Position numbers and translations under genes: made by a program
The notes under the pieces: generated by a model
The model's input: the letters and a program-made list of their open reading frames with translations, nothing else
What the model was told of the DNA's origin: nothing
Databases searched by the model: none
Shown here: in pieces, positions 3,410 to 21,373 of the stretch
Layout: each line of letters begins with the position of its first letter
Position numbering within the stretch: the stretch's first letter is position 1
Assembly (NCBI GenBank): GCA_009602735.1
Contig: WELA01003621.1
Coordinates: 124,001-145,484 of the forward strand
Source: Mesotaenium endlicherianum
Lineage: Eukaryota
Direction of reading: 5' to 3'
Length of the DNA: 21,484 nt

Positions 3410-3832
3410 TTAGACAGGATTACATTTTGAACATATACCGCTAACCACCACATCGGTTTGGGTGGCACGGAATCCTTTGGGTAATTGTACTGCAGGCACC
3501 GTTATGTGGTCGAGACAATAAGTAGTGCCACAGGCATCGCAAAGGAAATGGATATGGTCGTCGTGGTGATGACCGGCAGAACATTCATCCTTGCACAAAG
3601 CGTAGCGCACTGAGTTGTCGGTGGTGGGTATGGTATGAATGATGCCCTTTTCCACAAAGGTTTGCAAGGTGCGGTAAACGGTTACCCTATCGAATCCTGT
3701 ACCACTGCGCTGTTCAATATCGGCATGCGCCAAAGCGCCGTCGGTACGTAAAAACATATCCAGTATTTTCTTGCGGCTTTCGGTAACACTTAACTGGTTG
3801 CGCTTCAATATTTCACTGGTACTGCTAAACAT
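3410..3832 (-). CDS. Fur-family metalloregulator (Zur-like)
   Basis: VTESRKKIL, DRVTVYRTLQTFVEKGII winged helix, His-rich HHHDDHIHFLCDACG and C-terminal CSKC (two CxxC structural Zn motifs). Confidence 0.9.
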   Translation of the reverse strand: MFSSTSEILKRNQLSVTESRKKILDMFLRTDGALAHADIEQRSGTGFDRVTVYRTLQTFVEKGIIHTIPTTDNSVRYALCKDECSAGHHHDDHIHFLCDACGTTYCLDHITVPAVQLPKGFRATQTDVVVSGICSKCNPV

Positions 3833-3838
3833 GACACA

Positions 3839-4495
3839 CTATTGAGGGTTGTTACTAAAAATGTTGCTGGCAAAACGCGCCGATCCCTTTTCTGCCAGAA
3901 GCGTCCGGATATCTTTCTTCATTTTATCCAGTTCGTCTGCTTTCAAACCATCGTATATCTGTCCGCGCACTTTGCCATTCTTATCCACCAATGCAAAAAA
4001 CTGGGTATGGATGAACTGGTCTTCGATCTTCTGGAAACTGTTCTTCGGATCATCTAACAGGTACGAATTCCGTGCCAGTTGGTACAGGCTGTCTTTCCTT
4101 CCGGTGAGGAATACCCATTTGGCGGGATCTGCTTTCATGGAGTCGGCATAGGCTTTCAAACGGGGCACAGAATCGGTTCCGGGGTCACAGGTATTGGAAA
4201 CGATCATGAAATCGGGCTCCTGTTTGAAAGTCTCATAAATGGCTTTCATGTTGGTATTCATCTTCGGACAAATGCCCTTGCAACTGGTGAAAAAATATTC
4301 CACCACACTTACTTTTCCCAGCATGTCCTGGTCGGTATAAGGCCGCCCGTCCTGCGCAGTGAGACGATAAGGTTTCACATAACTCAATACCGGCAGTTTG
4401 GGTTTCCACAAATCTGTTCCCCTGAAAAGGAAGAAGTAAAACCCCGCTAACAATACCACAAAAAACAAGAGGTAAACCAGCCATTTTCTTTTCAT
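3839..4495 (-). CDS. SCO1/SenC family copper chaperone
   Basis: N-terminal TM anchor, FFTSCKGICP (CxxxC), DPGTDS..LKAYA, WVFLTG and FIHTQFFALVD (conserved His). Confidence 0.92.
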   Translation of the reverse strand: MKRKWLVYLLFFVVLLAGFYFFLFRGTDLWKPKLPVLSYVKPYRLTAQDGRPYTDQDMLGKVSVVEYFFTSCKGICPKMNTNMKAIYETFKQEPDFMIVSNTCDPGTDSVPRLKAYADSMKADPAKWVFLTGRKDSLYQLARNSYLLDDPKNSFQKIEDQFIHTQFFALVDKNGKVRGQIYDGLKADELDKMKKDIRTLLAEKGSARFASNIFSNNPQ

Positions 4496-4511
4496 ATCCG
4501 TGTTTGAACTA

Positions 4512-4519
4512 CAAAGTTA
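4512..4519 (-). promoter_or_regulatory. -7 promoter element (TAACTTTG) for the sco-fur unit
   Basis: The reverse complement of caaagtta is an exact TAnnTTTG, 16 nt before the SCO ATG. Confidence 0.6.
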
Positions 4520-4556
4520 CACCCAAGTGCCTGATAAACCGGGTTTAAGGAAATAT

Positions 4557-4587
4557 TTTGCAACATTGTTGCATTGTAGTAATTTTG
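4557..4587 (+). promoter_or_regulatory. Complete Bacteroidota promoter TTTG-N19-TAATTTTG overlapped by a perfect palindromic operator TGCAACA-T-TGTTGCA (4559-4573)
   Basis: -33 TTTG at 4557-4560 and -7 TAATTTTG at 4580-4587, with a canonical 19-nt spacer. The 7-1-7 inverted repeat overlaps the -33 box and the spacer. Confidence 0.75.
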
Positions 4588-4594
4588 TCTTCTT

Positions 4595-4999
4595 ATGAGC
4601 ATCAAAGTCAACTGGGACGCATTCGGCATTGCCACTTCGCTGGCCTGCGCTATCCACTGTGCCATCCTGCCGCTGGTATTGACAAGCCTGCCCTTATTCG
4701 GGGTGGAGATCATTGAGAACCGCTGGTTCGAATACCTGATGATCGGGATCGCTTTTTGTGTGGGTAGCTACGCTTTATATCATGGGCGGAAAAAACACCA
4801 CCATAGCTGGCTGCCCCTGGTTCTTTTCAGTATTGGTATGGTATTCCTGGTTACCAAGATGATCTTTCATGCGCTCCAGCTTTGGTTGCTGGTGCCTGCC
4901 GTGATCCTGATCGTTACCGCTCATTTTTTGAATTATAAACTTTGCCGGGTACACAACCACGCGCATGCAGATGATTGCAGCCACGAATCTGTGATCTGA
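4595..4999 (+). CDS. MerC-domain membrane protein (putative metal uptake), His-rich C-terminus
   Basis: WDAFGIATSLACAIHCAILP (CxxHC typical of the MerC domain), four hydrophobic segments, GRKKHHHS loop and C-terminal HNHAHADDCSH. Confidence 0.82.
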   Translation: MSIKVNWDAFGIATSLACAIHCAILPLVLTSLPLFGVEIIENRWFEYLMIGIAFCVGSYALYHGRKKHHHSWLPLVLFSIGMVFLVTKMIFHALQLWLLVPAVILIVTAHFLNYKLCRVHNHAHADDCSHESVI

Positions 5000-5001
5000 T
5001 C

Positions 5002-6507
5002 TTAACTGAAGGTATAACTCATACCACCACCTTTTTCATCTTTCAGTTGTACGCCCAGCGCCGCCAACTCATTCCGGATCTTATCGCTGGTAACAAAATC
5101 TTTTCGGGTCTTGGCTTCCTTACGTATGTCTATCAGTAATTGCAGCACACCTTCGAGTTTGCCATCGTCGGCAGACCGCTCGCTCTGCAATCCGAAGATG
5201 TCTTCTACATAGGCTTTCAGTTGGGTTTGCAACAATGCCACTGTAGTGGTTGATAAAGATTCGGCCGATATATGTTTGTCTTTGATGGAATTGATCACGG
5301 ATACCAGTTCGAACATATTGGCCAGCACTTTTGCTGTGTTGAAGTCATCGTTCATGAATTCATCGAACTCATCTACCAGCTTCTTCACTTTTTCATCCAG
5401 TGCCACATCACCGGCCGTATCGGCTCCACAGATGCCCGACTGTTGCAACCAGTTATACGCTTCCCACAAACGCTTCATGGCTTTTTCTGCCGCCTGCAAG
5501 GCTTCATTGCTGAAATCGAGTGTGCCCCGGTAATGGCTTTGCAAAATGAAGAAACGGATGGTCATGGGATGATAAGCCTGTGTGAGTGCAGGATGCGAGC
5601 CGCTGAACAGTTCGGTAAGCCTGATCACATTGTTATAACTCTTACCCATTTTTTTCCCGTTGATGGTGATCATGTTATTATGTAACCAATAACGGGCCGG
5701 GGTTTTGTGATTGCATACGGTACTTTGCGCAATCTCACATTCGTGGTGCGGGAAAACGAGGTCCATCCCGCCGCCGTGTATGTCGAACTCTTCTCCGAGG
5801 TATTTGGTACTCATGGCCGAGCACTCGATGTGCCAGCCGGGAAACCCTTCTCCCCAGGGACTTTGCCAGCGCATGATGTGTTCGGCAGGCGCATGTTTCC
5901 ACAACGCGAAATCGCTTTTATTCCGCTTCTCATCCTGGTTATCCAGTTCGCGGGTGGTATCGAGTTGGTCTTCCAAAATACGGCCACTCAATATGCCATA
6001 AGGCTGTCCCTTTTTAGAAAAATCGGTGTTGTATTTCTCTACGTCGAAGTACACAGAGCCATTCGCTTCATAAGCATATCCATCGGCAATGATCTTTTTG
6101 ATCATTTCAATCTGCTCAATAATGTGACCTGTAGCAGTGGGTTCTATGCTGGGGTTCAGGTTGTTGAAACGCCGCATGGCCCAATGATAAAGATTGGTGT
6201 ATTTCTGCACCAGCTCCATGGGCTCCAGTTTCTCGAGCACGGCCTTCTTGCTGATCTTGTCTTCCGCTTCGCGTCCTTCTTCTTCAAAATGCCCTGCATC
6301 GGTGATATTTCGCACATACCGTACTTTATAACCCAGGTAAAGAAGATACCGGTAGATAACATCGAAAGTAATGAAAGGCCTGGCGTGACCCAGGTGGCTT
6401 TCTCCGCTTACGGTGGGTCCGCATACATACATGCCAACATACGGTGCATTGATGGGTGTAAACGTTTCTTTTTCGCGGGTCAGGGAATTATATACTTTGA
6501 GTGGCAT
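5002..6507 (-). CDS. cysS: Cysteine--tRNA ligase
   Basis: [12 protein letters not shown] (HIGH motif), [53 protein letters not shown] (KMSKS motif) and C-terminal DKIRNEL. Confidence 0.98.
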
Positions 6508-6587
6508 GAGAGGTTATGGTTATTAGCATGGATACAATAAGACAGGAACAAGGCAGATACTGCCGCAACAACAGGAGATCGGCGGCT

Positions 6588-6626
6588 TCAGCAACAACAG
6601 CAACAGTATGGATAGATTCTAATCAT
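6588..6626 (-). CDS. Putative polycysteine leader peptide (uORF) MIRIYPYCCCCC upstream of cysS
   Basis: The minus strand reads ATG ATT AGA ATC TAT CCA TAC TGT TGC TGT TGT TGC TGA. Five consecutive Cys codons end at the stop, 80 nt upstream of the cysS ATG on the same strand. A TATCTTCG -7-like box lies at 6634-6641. Confidence 0.78.
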   Translation of the reverse strand: MIRIYPYCCCCC

Positions 6627-6643
6627 TTCGCTGCGAAGATATT

Positions 6644-7759
6644 TTATTTTCTTAAACGAAGATCGGATACCAGCATAATATGATCGCTCAGGTCTTCATC
6701 CACCATATCGAACTGCCTTACCTCGAAATGTTTGTCGGCCAGGATATAATCGATCCGCAATGTGGGCGCCAGGGAAATGAAGCTGCGGCCAATACCAAAG
6801 CCTTTTTTAAGGAAGGCGTCCTGCCAGCTGTCCTTGATATGGAAATAAGTGAAGGAGTTGGGCACATCATTGAAATCGCCGCAGAGAATGGTGGGGTACG
6901 GACTGGCATCCAGCGCTTCCCGCACCAGGGAAGCCTGTACGCCCCTCCGGCGGAAGGCCAATCGCATCTTCACAAAAATATTCTTAGACGCCATCAGGGC
7001 TTCTTCGTCCTGCGTGCGGATCTTCTCCAGGTCGTTGTAGTCGCCTTTTTTGAATTTGAAAGATTGCAGGTGCGTGGTAAACAATCGTATGGTATCGGCG
7101 CCTTTTACGATATCCGCGTAAATAAGACTTTCGGCCACCGGGTATCGTACCCTGCCCGTGTCTACGATGGGATATTTAGAGAAGATGATGCAGCCCGACT
7201 GGTACTCCCCGTTGTTACGCTGGTAATCTTTCGAAAAAAAATAATAAGGAAAACGGCCGGTAAACAACGAGAGATTATCGGCATCATTGCCTGAACGGCT
7301 GGCATGGTTGAACTCCTGCATGCAAATCACATCGGGCTCCAGCTTCAGCACAGTTTGCGCTACTTCTTCGCGGATGTGTTTTTTTGTTTCCTTGTTTTTA
7401 GACAGCCCGTTAAAACTCTGCACGTTCCAATCCACCACGCGCAGGTCGTTACTTTTCTTAGGTTTGTTGATACCCGATCCGGGATGCCAGGCAAACAATA
7501 CATTGAGTTGCCGGTAACCTACACACAGTGCAACAAGTGGCAGCAACGCCAATACCGGCTTCGCAATAAGCCAGCCAATCAGAAAAAATATCAGCAATAA
7601 AACCAGGTAAGGAACAATAAGCCCGGTAAAACCTATCAACCACCAATGTGTGGGGTTGAGGTATGGCGAAAGACAAGCCAGTAAAAACAAAGCAACGAGT
7701 AAAAGATTGATTCCGATAAGCGTTGTTTTTACTGCGCGACGAAAAAGGGTCTTGGCCAT
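6644..7759 (-). CDS. Endonuclease/exonuclease/phosphatase (EEP) family membrane protein
   Basis: Three N-terminal TM helices, then VDWNVQ, PDVICMQEF, IFSKYPI, TTHLQS, ILCGDFND, RIDYIL and SDH. Confidence 0.92.
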   Translation of the reverse strand: MAKTLFRRAVKTTLIGINLLLVALFLLACLSPYLNPTHWWLIGFTGLIVPYLVLLLIFFLIGWLIAKPVLALLPLVALCVGYRQLNVLFAWHPGSGINKPKKSNDLRVVDWNVQSFNGLSKNKETKKHIREEVAQTVLKLEPDVICMQEFNHASRSGNDADNLSLFTGRFPYYFFSKDYQRNNGEYQSGCIIFSKYPIVDTGRVRYPVAESLIYADIVKGADTIRLFTTHLQSFKFKKGDYNDLEKIRTQDEEALMASKNIFVKMRLAFRRRGVQASLVREALDASPYPTILCGDFNDVPNSFTYFHIKDSWQDAFLKKGFGIGRSFISLAPTLRIDYILADKHFEVRQFDMVDEDLSDHIMLVSDLRLRK

Positions 7760-18240: not shown

Positions 18241-18893
18241 ATGTTTTATCCGCTTTCCAATATTTCAGAAACGACTCTTGCTTATTTGCCTCCATTCCGT
18301 AAAAGCAACTATCTGGTTTATTGGATAATGATCTTGATGGTCGTTACTGCTATAATGATCTTGCCTTTTGTAAATACTAATATTGCCGTGAGGTCAATGG
18401 GCATTACACGGCCTTTAAATGAGCGAACAGAAATAAAGCCAGTTATAGGGGGGATTATTGATACATTGTATTATCACGAAGGTAGTCATATTGCTAAAGG
18501 TGCAGTCCTACTGCGGCTGAAAGATCAGGTGACTGGTAGCAAACGTCGGAGAAATGACTACGAAATATCCCAACGCCAACAGTTCGTCCACGATTTAGAG
18601 CTACTCACTTCTTCTACAGACTTAGATGAGTCACTGACTATTCAGTTGCAGTCTCCATTGTACCGTGAACAGCTTAGCCGCTTTATTCAACAGCTAGCTG
18701 ATCAAGAAGCCGGATTAAAGAAATCTGTCCGTGAGTTAAGCATAAATCGACAGCTCTTGGCGGATAAAGTAATAGCACCTAAAGAATATTTTGACGTGGA
18801 AGTACAAAATAACAGAGTTTCTGCGGGATATAAAGCTTTTATGCGTGAACAGCAAGCTACTTGGCAGCAAGATTTGAGCCGCTACCGATTAGA
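18241..18893 (+). pseudogene. HlyD-family type I secretion membrane-fusion protein, interrupted by IS21
   Basis: N-terminal TM helix (VYWIMILMVVTAIMILPFV), lipoyl-like half motif (EIKPVIGGIIDTLYYHEGSHIAKGAVLLRL) and coiled coil. The frame enters the IS end at 18894 and stops at 18960, before the C-terminal beta domain. Confidence 0.82.
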
Positions 18894-19038: not shown

Positions 19039-20592
19039 ATGAAGCTGACACCGTATTTATCGAAACTTATGACGTATCACGAAGTACACAAACTATCAAG
19101 AGAAGGCTTTTCGATCAGTTATATCAGTAACTACCTGGGCTTAAACTGGCGTACCGTTAAGCGCCTGTTGGTGATAGAAGATGATCGCCATTACGAAGAA
19201 GTCCTCCAGCACAGCAATGAAAAGGATTGTATCCTGGACCGGTATGAAGTGTTTATTAAGCTGAAACTGGAGCAATATCCCGATACCTCCTCCGCACAGA
19301 TGCATGACTGGCTGAAAGAACACTACTCCGATATGCCTGCAGTATCCGTTAGAACCGTGTTCAATTACGTATCCCGGGTACGTCAGAAGTACCAGTTAGT
19401 AAAATCGGAAGGGGCACGGGTATACGAGATGGTACCGGAAACACCCTACGGAGCGCAGGCACAGGTAGACTTTGGTCAGTACAATATGCGCAACACCCAG
19501 GGCGGCAGGGTTAAAGTGTATTTTTTCACCCTGGTGCTATCCCGCTCCCGCTATAAATATGTCTTTTTCTCACAGGAGCCTTTTACTACAGCCACCTCTA
19601 TAGAAGCCCACGAGCATGCTTTTGCGTTTATAGAAGGGTTACCTGATACACTGGTATACGATCAGGACAGGCTGTTTATAGTAGATGAAAATAAAGGCGA
19701 CCTGATATTGACCGAACAGTTCAGGGCCTATAGCAACCAGCGTAAGTTCAAACTGTATTTCTGCCGTAAATCAGACCCAGAGAGCAAGGGTAAGGTGGAG
19801 AACGTGGTAAAATACGTAAAACAGAACTTCCTGTATAACCGTTCGTTTACCGATATAGATGTTCTGAATGCGGAAGCACTGGCATGGTTAGTCAGAACTG
19901 CCAATGAGTTACCGCATAGTACCACACAAAGACGTCCCTGCCAGGAATGGACGGTAGAAAAGCCTTTCCTGCATCCATACACCCCACTAAGGCTACAATC
20001 ACCTACAGGAACGCATTACGCAGTTCGTAAGGACAACAGCTTCTCCTATAAAGGCAACTTTTATTCTCTTCCTTCGGGCACCTATAAAGGCCGTGGCAGC
20101 CAGGTGCTGCTGGAAAAGCAGGGAACCTGTATCGTCCTTTACAATCTGGAGCACGAGGAGATCTGCCGCCACCTGGTAAGCACTGGTAGTGGAGAAAAAA
20201 TCATCAACAATGATCATCGCCGTGAAAAGAGCCCTGCTATTCAGGAACTGGAAGATCAGTTTTGCTCCCTGGTTAATAACGCAGAATCAGCTCGTCAGTT
20301 GATAGCTGCTATCAGGCAGGATAAACCCCGCTACATTCGCGATCAGTTGCTGCTGTTGATACAAACCGTTCAGCACTGCCAGCCTGCTATTGCAGAGCAG
20401 GCATTAGCTTACTGCTTAAATATTGGTACCAAAGGGGCTGCCGATTTTAAATCAGTGGTGCTGCATCTTAGCAATCAGGCGGAAGAAAAACATGCGCCTG
20501 TAGTTTACCTCAATCCACTGAACCACAAAACACCCACAGAGGCGCTGATACAGCCTGCAACCAGCTCTATTAACGATTACGATATGTTTTAA
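19039..20592 (+). CDS. istA: IS21-family DDE transposase IstA
   Basis: N-terminal HTH (SISYISNYLGLNWRTVKR), ETPYGAQAQVDFG (D), LSRSR, VYDQD (D), PESKGKVE (E) and HSTTQRRP. Confidence 0.96.
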   Translation: MKLTPYLSKLMTYHEVHKLSREGFSISYISNYLGLNWRTVKRLLVIEDDRHYEEVLQHSNEKDCILDRYEVFIKLKLEQYPDTSSAQMHDWLKEHYSDMPAVSVRTVFNYVSRVRQKYQLVKSEGARVYEMVPETPYGAQAQVDFGQYNMRNTQGGRVKVYFFTLVLSRSRYKYVFFSQEPFTTATSIEAHEHAFAFIEGLPDTLVYDQDRLFIVDENKGDLILTEQFRAYSNQRKFKLYFCRKSDPESKGKVENVVKYVKQNFLYNRSFTDIDVLNAEALAWLVRTANELPHSTTQRRPCQEWTVEKPFLHPYTPLRLQSPTGTHYAVRKDNSFSYKGNFYSLPSGTYKGRGSQVLLEKQGTCIVLYNLEHEEICRHLVSTGSGEKIINNDHRREKSPAIQELEDQFCSLVNNAESARQLIAAIRQDKPRYIRDQLLLLIQTVQHCQPAIAEQALAYCLNIGTKGAADFKSVVLHLSNQAEEKHAPVVYLNPLNHKTPTEALIQPATSSINDYDMF

Positions 20593-20614
20593 ATCACACA
20601 CTAAACAGTAATAC

Positions 20615-21373
20615 ATGGAACAAAAACAAATGATCAGGCAGTATTGCCAGCAGTTCAACATGACCGGCGTAAACAAGGTCATAGATGAGCTTATTACCGA
20701 TGCTGAAACCAGAGCACTGGGGTATATAGACTATACCCTTGGCTTCCTGACCACTGAGGCCGAATACCGCAGGCAACGGGACATCAAAAAGCGGATGAAG
20801 ATGGCCACCCTGCCCAGGTACTGCGATCTGGCAGCGTATGACCCCAGCTTCAACAATGGCCTTACCATTACCCGGCTACATCAGTTACAGGAACTACACT
20901 GGATGGATCAGATTTTTAATATTATACTGATGGGCCCTTCTGGAACGGGAAAAACGTTCCTCTCTGCCGGGCTTTGTAATGAAGCTGTTAAGAAGGGCTA
21001 TAAGGCTTACTTCCGCACGATGGACACGCTTATCAGCATCCTTAAGATGAAAGAGATTACAGCCTCCGCTAAAGCTGAATACAAGCGGATTTTACATGCA
21101 CACCTGATTGTGATAGATGACATCATGTTGTTCCCGGTGGAAAAGAAAGAGGCGGTATTGTTATTCAATTTTATTAACCAGGTGTACGAAAAAACATCTT
21201 TCATTATTACCACCAACAAAAAGCCAACGGAATGGGCGCAGATGCTGGATGATGAGGTGCTGGCAACGGCATTACTGGACAGATTACTATACCAATGCGA
21301 AGTAATCAACCTCACCGGTAAGAGCTACAGGCTCAAAAATCGTAAAACTATTTTTGAGGAACAGGACAACTAA
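20615..21373 (+). CDS. istB: IS21-family AAA+ helper ATPase IstB
   Basis: Walker A GPSGTGKT, Walker B LIVIDD, IITTNK, ATALLDRLL and GKSYR. Confidence 0.96.
   Translation: MEQKQMIRQYCQQFNMTGVNKVIDELITDAETRALGYIDYTLGFLTTEAEYRRQRDIKKRMKMATLPRYCDLAAYDPSFNNGLTITRLHQLQELHWMDQIFNIILMGPSGTGKTFLSAGLCNEAVKKGYKAYFRTMDTLISILKMKEITASAKAEYKRILHAHLIVIDDIMLFPVEKKEAVLLFNFINQVYEKTSFIITTNKKPTEWAQMLDDEVLATALLDRLLYQCEVINLTGKSYRLKNRKTIFEEQDN

Follow-up and report, generated by a model that had tools for sequence, protein, structure and literature searches.

Why should a reading frame of only twelve codons, five of which (5/12) specify cysteine, stand directly before the gene for cysteine--tRNA ligase (cysS)? The question is raised by a locus on the minus strand of the window (the whole stretch of 21,484 nucleotides that was analysed), and it concerns both what such a frame may sense and by which output it may act on cysS.

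Layout of the cysS leader locus

The upstream reading frame (uORF; 6588..6626, minus strand) consists of 12 codons and a TGA stop, encodes the putative leader peptide MIRIYPYCCCCC and reads ATG ATT AGA ATC TAT CCA TAC TGT TGC TGT TGT TGC TGA; its assignment as a leader draws on the sequence together with its conservation in the family. The five cysteine codons (codons 8-12, TGT TGC TGT TGT TGC; 6591..6605, minus strand) would act as the sensor and are directly adjoined by the stop codon. By re-reading the sequence, we confirmed the 12-codon minus-strand uORF at 6626-6588 with five tandem cysteine codons that a preliminary description had reported, and its further positional claims held as well: the -7-like box TATCTTCG at 6641-6634 ends 7 nt 5' of the uORF ATG, the uORF stop lies 80 nt 5' of the cysS ATG (6507), and the same octamer is found at 3396-3389, at the start of an epimerase-family ORF. 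The downstream gene (5002..6507, minus strand, 501 aa), which would be the regulated one, was identified as cysteine--tRNA ligase by TIGR00435 (451 bits, cut-off 340).

The octamer TATCTTCG (6634..6641, minus strand) is predicted to be a Bacteroidota sigma-A promoter box of the -7 type; this call rests on the -7-type box, and a -33 element is not claimed. In Flavobacterium psychrophilum the TAnnTTTG box is placed at -12 to -5 (PMC9723704), which predicts for the present locus a start site at about 6629 and thus a 5' leader of 3 nt before the uORF AUG. The gene upstream encodes a member of the endonuclease/exonuclease/phosphatase family (PF03372; 6644..7759, minus strand); 2 nt separate its stop from the promoter box and no strong terminator intervenes, so that read-through from upstream is also possible. 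The leader was identical in the contigs of 4/4 public runs, some of which are possibly the source DNA, and two of them carry one spacer substitution (6537); an assembly error is thereby excluded.

Between the uORF and cysS lies a pyrimidine-rich spacer of 80 nt (6508..6587, minus strand; 24 C, 14 G, 28 T and 14 A), a candidate Rho-loading region, within which two mutually exclusive, overlapping hairpins are predicted. Hairpin A (6562..6586, minus strand; GCCGC/GCGGC, -8.1 kcal/mol) is antiterminator-like, and it was found in the window's own locus only, being absent from any family consensus. Hairpin B (6552..6564, minus strand; GGCAG-TAT-CTGCC, -5.5 kcal/mol), which is followed by TTGTTCC, resembles a weak terminator or pause hairpin, and small hairpins resembling it were recognized by eye at two other loci (L032 and L067). 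Neither a T-box nor any other Rfam family was detected at 6400-6800, where no match was better than E 3.7.

Conservation of the leader in relatives

We collected cysS loci from the genomes of relatives, from GTDB contigs (mostly Sediminibacterium or Chitinophagaceae) and from a phylum draw. We excluded four loci whose upstream sequence fell short of 250 nt (L019, L026, L054 and L100); L236-L245, which have no upstream DNA, were left uncounted. By our definition, a Cys-rich uORF begins with ATG, has no more than 35 aa, ends within 200 nt upstream of cysS and contains either three or more consecutive cysteines or a run of two and at least three cysteines in total. Such uORFs were found at 45 of 109 family loci, the window's own locus included, compared to 0/109 in antisense and 127/10,900 among shuffled upstream sequences, although these counts overstate the significance, as the family set leans to close relatives and kin are not independent. 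In the even phylum draw, the leader was present in 4/10 family genomes. Outside the family, Cys-rich uORFs occurred at 3/77 loci versus 2/77 in antisense, i.e. not above background in the Bacteroidota sampled, and the weak Cys-Cys ORFs encountered there (L138, L139, L141 and L151) are at this background level. A promoter-like box accompanies 38 of the 45 family leaders, and in 38/45 its start lies 12-15 nt before the uORF ATG, a spacing from which the AUG is predicted to fall at +1 to +4.

The reading frame of the repeat is likewise conserved. Runs of at least three identical residues in upstream short ORFs were of cysteine at 41/109 loci, of leucine at 11 and of any other residue at no more than two. 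At 41/109 loci at least three TGY codons stand in a row; a promoter-proximal ATG is present at 35 of these, and 35/35 are in the cysteine frame, which rules out a poly-Leu or Val/Ala reading of the repeat. The codons are mixed, with 141 TGT and 90 TGC over the 48 loci scored positive. The two comparative checks which the preliminary description had set, namely conserved Cys-rich uORFs in relatives (45/109 family loci, 35/35 in the cysteine frame) and synonymous TGT/TGC variation (141/90), thus both came out in favour of its proposal.

For a finer comparison, 40 dereplicated leaders were taken from the 45 family leaders. The first cysteine pair falls at codons 8-12 in 35/40, the stop adjoins the last cysteine in 26/40, and the spacer measures 46-137 nt (median about 70; 51-96 nt in 36/40), with no frame preference (length modulo 3, 15/13/12; n=40); from the first cysteine pair to the cysS start, the distance is 66-158 nt. 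The peptides contain 2-7 cysteines in 9-27 aa and their N-terminal residues vary freely, while aromatic residues, His, Ser and Thr are common just before the cysteine run, the residue at -1 being S or T in 21/40. Across these leaders, it is the start, the position of the cysteine run and the spacer length that are conserved, and the peptide itself drifts. Taken together, the comparative data argue that the cysS leader is not a product of chance but a real, conserved and very probably regulatory uORF.

Gain and loss of the leader

The leader is absent from 64/109 family loci, and in 62 of these 64 a similar box is found within 70 nt of cysS, mostly at 10-33 nt. On a FastTree phylogeny of 104 CysS proteins (41 with leader; partial sequences omitted), the leader state changes 12 times compared to a shuffled mean of 32.4, and eight of the 12 changes are forced by strongly supported branches. 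Since leaders occur throughout the clade, this distribution suggests repeated loss, the change count alone giving no direction.

The near-sister genome G017 provides an example. Its CysS is 99% identical and the flanks are 97.0% and 95.8% identical, and yet the cysS leader is absent (locus L002): the same box stands 23 nt before cysS, without uORF or spacer, which makes this locus a natural leaderless allele. A search for a displaced copy of the cysS leader elsewhere in G017 returned none (best E 0.12). Given the 64/109 loci and the sister genome without it, the leader is dispensable. If the proposed reading of the locus is true, a cassette of about 100 nt would be gained or lost as a whole between promoter and gene, and the sister genomes would constitute a natural with/without pair. 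The small size of the cassette, its range of 2-7 cysteines and its natural deletion in the sister render it well suited to reporter constructs and to the study of attenuator gain and loss.

Cysteine-codon runs and other leaders in the same genome

Both strands of the own genome (G000, 4.04 Mb) were scanned for TGY runs. Runs of at least five TGY codons occur nine times on the two strands, and two of the nine directly precede cysteine genes, namely the cysS leader and one before cysH; consecutive cysteine codons are thus found in leaders at both genes. Short ATG ORFs with at least four tandem cysteines number eight, of which the cysS leader alone is preceded, at no more than 30 nt, by a TAnnTTYG box; the octamer TATCTTCG itself occurs 93 times in the genome. 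Applied to 2,672 upstream regions of this genome, the definition of a Cys-rich uORF given above selected 68, one of them with a promoter box. Among 123 promoter-proximal short ORFs, the cysS leader contains the longest single-residue run, followed by Phe-rich and His-rich leaders and one Ala run. A further ORF, MILSLCCCIDETR (contig C15, plus strand, near 18599), lies behind a promoter-like box 68 nt 5' of a 119-aa gene with no evident link to cysteine, and is probably a chance occurrence.

The second poly-Cys uORF (locus L205; contig C10 of G000, 40899-41015, plus strand) encodes 38 aa with CCCCC and then CC and ends 56 nt before a cysH-cysD-cysN-cysE-cysK operon, in which the names beyond cysD and cysK were read from translations. 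Its spacer is C-rich (18 C, 5 G) and without terminator, and G017 keeps this leader with two synonymous changes (locus L204). In a survey of cysD loci, which reached 1.5 kb upstream so that operons starting further upstream lie beyond it, runs of at least three cysteines in short ORFs were found at 9/32 loci versus two in antisense. The spacers at cysD loci have more C than G, and no terminator-like hairpin at or below -8 kcal/mol was detected in them. At L194 (G041), before a cysK-containing operon, a Cys leader, MRFFVTYCCCSSG, is followed by a terminator-like hairpin with a U tract (-10.5 kcal/mol); given this locus, the Cys leaders of one family may differ in their output. The single SAM-I match of the genome precedes a different, methionine-type operon (names from translations) without Cys uORF, and a tandem SAM-I riboswitch was accordingly discarded as a candidate.

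A separate family of cysS leaders was encountered in family f21 of the same class, where the peptides measure 19-25 aa, end in a conserved IICC and lie 50-66 nt before cysS. With the criterion relaxed to two consecutive cysteines, this leader is present in 6/30 genomes with none in antisense (L256, L266, L267, L271, L278 and L283), and in 2/30 under the strict criterion. The conserved f21 peptide could mean a role as an arrest peptide.

Apart from cysteine, G000 contains promoter-proximal Phe-rich, His-rich and aspartate-family leaders (on C2, minus strand; C17, plus strand; and C4, minus strand) with strong intrinsic terminators. They precede a pheA-like gene, a hisG-like gene and, for the leader MMNMKHTKRIKKPL with its Met/Lys/Thr/Ile codons (aspartate family), an asd-like gene, all gene names being read from translations. 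The terminators of these pheL, hisL and asd leaders range from -16.7 to -20.4 kcal/mol.

A probable sensor of charged tRNA-Cys and its proposed Rho-dependent output

Because of the established logic of leader peptides and the conservation described above, it is highly likely that the uORF senses cysteinyl-tRNA by ribosome stalling. It would thereby act as a cis-acting sensor of charged tRNA-Cys, such that a shortage of cysteinyl-tRNA raises cysS expression.

As to the output, we propose with even confidence that the stalled ribosome blocks Rho-dependent termination in the spacer. Transcription would start about 3 nt before the AUG, as deduced from the box position, rendering the uORF nearly leaderless, so that a ribosome could load at once. 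With enough Cys-tRNA, the ribosome would read codons 8-12, terminate and leave, and Rho could then load on the bare spacer, whose 70-80 nt or so are C-rich and have little structure, and end transcription ahead of cysS or soon after its start, with hairpin B possibly serving as a pause. When Cys-tRNA is short, the ribosome would wait on the cysteine codons beside the stop, where it would cover the beginning of the Rho-loading stretch; RNA polymerase would then continue into cysS.

This proposal was reached because the spacer is pyrimidine-rich, has more C than G and measures about 70 nt, and because no conserved terminator, no conserved fold and no change in start accessibility was found; resting on elimination and base composition, the Rho step is a proposition for which we see equal chances of being right or wrong. 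In 36/40 leaders, C exceeds G in the spacer, compared to 33/58 long 5' UTRs used as controls; the mean skew is +0.26 versus +0.06 and the pyrimidine fraction 0.63 versus 0.52. All controls derive from a single genome, G000, and the leaders are related to one another by descent. The window's own locus shows a mild skew (+0.125 once the last 15 nt are set aside), and a C/G ratio equally high is present in 18% of 1,426 control upstream regions, so that composition is not specific. A rho gene was found in 4/5 genomes checked and is absent only from one that is 89% complete. Rut sites are described as having C in excess of G, being weakly structured and optimally spanning 60-90 nt, and tnaC sets the precedent for such control by a uORF (PMC12360218). 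The tnaC ribosome, however, sits on the stop, while a ribosome at the first cysteine codon here would cover just the first few spacer bases (assuming a footprint of about 15 nt), so that a stall at this codon would shield less of the spacer than at tnaC. A role for Rho had been conjectured for mycobacterial Cys leaders (PMC1262725), and the mycobacterial locus tested later turned out to have a translational output (bioRxiv 10.1101/834739).

Weighed against the other outputs, Rho-dependent attenuation ranks first, at evenly balanced odds, above a weak-hairpin terminator and translational control. Extended to both loci, it suggests a cysteine 'ribulon' in Chitinophagaceae that would comprise cysS and the sulfate-assimilation operon. 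Their near-leaderless poly-Cys uORFs would couple tRNA-Cys charging to Rho termination without an RNA switch; this extension is tentative, and we hold it to be somewhat less probable than the converse.

Alternative outputs and alternative readings

The same sensor may instead act through a classical hairpin output, in which hairpin B would be a weak intrinsic terminator, possibly assisted by NusA/NusG. A ribosome at the stop would mask GCCGC (6586-6582), allowing the GGCAG/CTGCC hairpin and its U-rich tail to form, and a stall at the first cysteine codon would free GCCGC to pair with GCGGC as antiterminator. Ribosome-masked folding indeed gives this switch between hairpins A and B for a stall at the first cysteine codon versus a ribosome at the stop, a classical attenuator geometry; the predicted energies (-8.1 versus -5.5 kcal/mol), the flagging of hairpin B by the terminator scan, the resemblance, noted by eye, to small hairpins of L032 and L067 and the terminator-like hairpin of L194 (-10.5 kcal/mol) point in the same direction, and a stem straddling the uORF stop at or below -3 kcal/mol is present in 19/40 leaders. 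Against it, hairpin B is small, with 5 bp in the stem, 3 nt in the loop and a U tract that is interrupted, compared to -16.7 to -20.4 kcal/mol for the other leader terminators of the genome, the terminator scan yields seven such sites versus a mean of 4.5 in shuffles, and the fold with a stall at the third cysteine codon differs from the A/B switch. Neither was a conserved intrinsic terminator found in the family (terminator-like hairpins in 5/40 leaders versus 2/60 controls with a loose routine), nor a consensus fold by RNAalifold on 21 aligned leaders, nor spacer structure in excess of shuffles (mean z -0.11, 40 leaders). We therefore regard a hairpin output as unlikely.

A hairpin pairing the cysteine codons with the sequence after the stop, as noted by eye, was rejected in its general form, ensemble pairing giving a mean z of -0.01 with 18/40 leaders above 0. 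Perfect stems of this kind were found in 19/40 (mean -3.2 versus -2.0 kcal/mol when shuffled; own locus -1.2), and the stem is kept as a modestly supported, predicted feature of a subset.

A translational output of the same sensor, as for mycobacterial Ms5788A, would have the stalled ribosome free the cysS initiation region or feed ribosomes to it, any mRNA change being secondary polarity or decay. Ms5788A is the only poly-Cys leader whose mechanism has been resolved experimentally (bioRxiv 10.1101/834739), and initiation in Bacteroidota is reported to be tuned by mRNA structure (PMC6847099). The predicted accessibility of the cysS start region, however, is 0.587 when free, 0.598 when stalled and 0.597 with the ribosome at the stop (n=40), and the predicted unpaired probability is higher by more than 0.1 in the stalled than in the at-stop state in 2/40 leaders, with the reverse in 2/40. 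Moreover, the cysS start lies 66-158 nt from the first cysteine pair and the spacer length gives no frame coupling, Bacteroidota are described as having no Shine-Dalgarno sequence to unmask (PMC6847099), and predicted folding of the 40 leaders lends no support to a duplex that would sequester the downstream ribosome-binding site and be broken by a stalled ribosome. Translational control appears accordingly rather doubtful.

That the peptide itself matters, either as a metal- or thiol-binding product or as a nascent arrest peptide sensing free cysteine, thiol or redox state, is very improbable: the residues common just before the cysteine run (S or T at -1 in 21/40) and the whole-peptide conservation in f21 would suit it, but the N-terminal residues are otherwise unconstrained, the cysteine number (2-7) and length (9-27 aa) vary, the conserved features are positional, Cys ORFs are found in cis at two separate loci, each time ahead of cysteine genes, and 7/7 longer homologous peptides have no match in NCBIfam. 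A chance ORF or low-complexity TGY repeat without regulatory role, to which the patchy distribution, the loss in the near-sister genome and the other TGY runs might point, was already disfavoured and is scarcely credible in view of 45/109 versus 0/109 in antisense, 35/35 in frame and the recurrence before a cysteine-synthesis operon.

Relation to known cysteine leaders

A Cys leader before cysS is already known as a concept from Rhodobacterales (PMC8632094) and Deinococcus (PMC4007540). In Rhodobacterales, the uORFC-8-2 motif upstream of cysS is a tandem-Cys uORF proposed to sense aminoacylated tRNA-Cys (PMC8632094). Both have tandem cysteine codons directly upstream of cysS; uORFC-8-2, a computational prediction only, is described as having its two cysteines at codons 14-15 and as forming two conserved stems together with an intrinsic terminator, and belongs to a different phylum, while the family described here, compared by description, has 2-7 cysteines from codons 8-12 without conserved stems or terminator. 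In Deinococcus deserti, the start site of cysS was mapped to a leaderless 10-aa Cys-Cys leader peptide (PMC4007540). A Cys leader at the start of the cysS message is common to both, leaderless there and predicted to be near-leaderless here, whereas the D. deserti peptide has two cysteines, its cysS has a Shine-Dalgarno sequence, and the regulation there was proposed (PMC4007540).

In mycobacteria, polycysteine leaderless sORFs, among them Ms5788A and the 'Cys ribulon', are proven attenuators (bioRxiv 10.1101/834739), which had been predicted earlier as lacking terminators and being possibly Rho-dependent (PMC1262725). Poly-Cys ORFs with cysteines near the stop, several cysteine loci per genome and no intrinsic terminator are common to both systems. 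The mycobacterial targets, however, are cysteine-metabolism operons, 'cysS' occurring 0 times in the accessible text of bioRxiv 10.1101/834739, and the output tested there, Shine-Dalgarno unmasking, has no counterpart in Bacteroidota and is not supported by folding here. With tnaC/speFL-type leaders (PMC12360218) the locus shares the proposed output, in which a stalled ribosome shields a rut site in the spacer between uORF and gene, but those peptides arrest the ribosome at or near the stop in response to a ligand, and the signal here would be the lack of charged tRNA.

Within the same phylum, leader-peptide attenuators with cognate codons are described before hisG, pheA and ilvE of F. psychrophilum (PMC9723704), and G000 has matching pheL and hisL leaders; unlike the cysS leader, the F. 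psychrophilum leaders carry strong intrinsic terminators. The leader-peptide rows of supplementary file 8 of PMC9723704 hold no cysteine or cysS leader, the main text of PMC11109978 contains neither 'cysS' nor 'cysteine', and a full-text literature search, with subscription journals outside its scope, yielded no cysS or cysteine leader from Bacteroidota. Overall, the cysS leader would work like known Cys attenuators, yet by the features compared it falls outside both uORFC-8-2 and the mycobacterial type with Shine-Dalgarno unmasking.

Control by cysteine-codon leaders would thus extend to Bacteroidota, where neither published output fits: a conserved terminator is missing, and so is a Shine-Dalgarno sequence that could be unmasked. 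The question raised in 2005 whether Rho is the output of terminator-less Cys leaders (PMC1262725) becomes directly testable at this locus. If true, a Rho 'ribulon' would represent an attenuator that senses starvation without any RNA structure, in a phylum whose initiation does not use Shine-Dalgarno sequences. The leader also points to unannotated small ORFs that are missed by current gene families.

Genomic neighbourhood

At 3410-4999 of the window, Fur-family and SCO1/SenC genes on the minus strand are accompanied by a MerC-family gene on the plus strand that is convergent with cysS, a group which may form a possible metal-homeostasis cluster. An IS21-type pair, of which one ORF matches an integrase core (PF00665, below cut-off) and the other is of the IstB-like ATP-binding type (PF01695), occupies 19039-21373 and lies outside contig C7 of G000. 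The segment 5900-7400 was recovered near-complete in runs labelled as several different organisms and in a wastewater metagenome, a distribution that would fit a widespread water or reagent bacterium.
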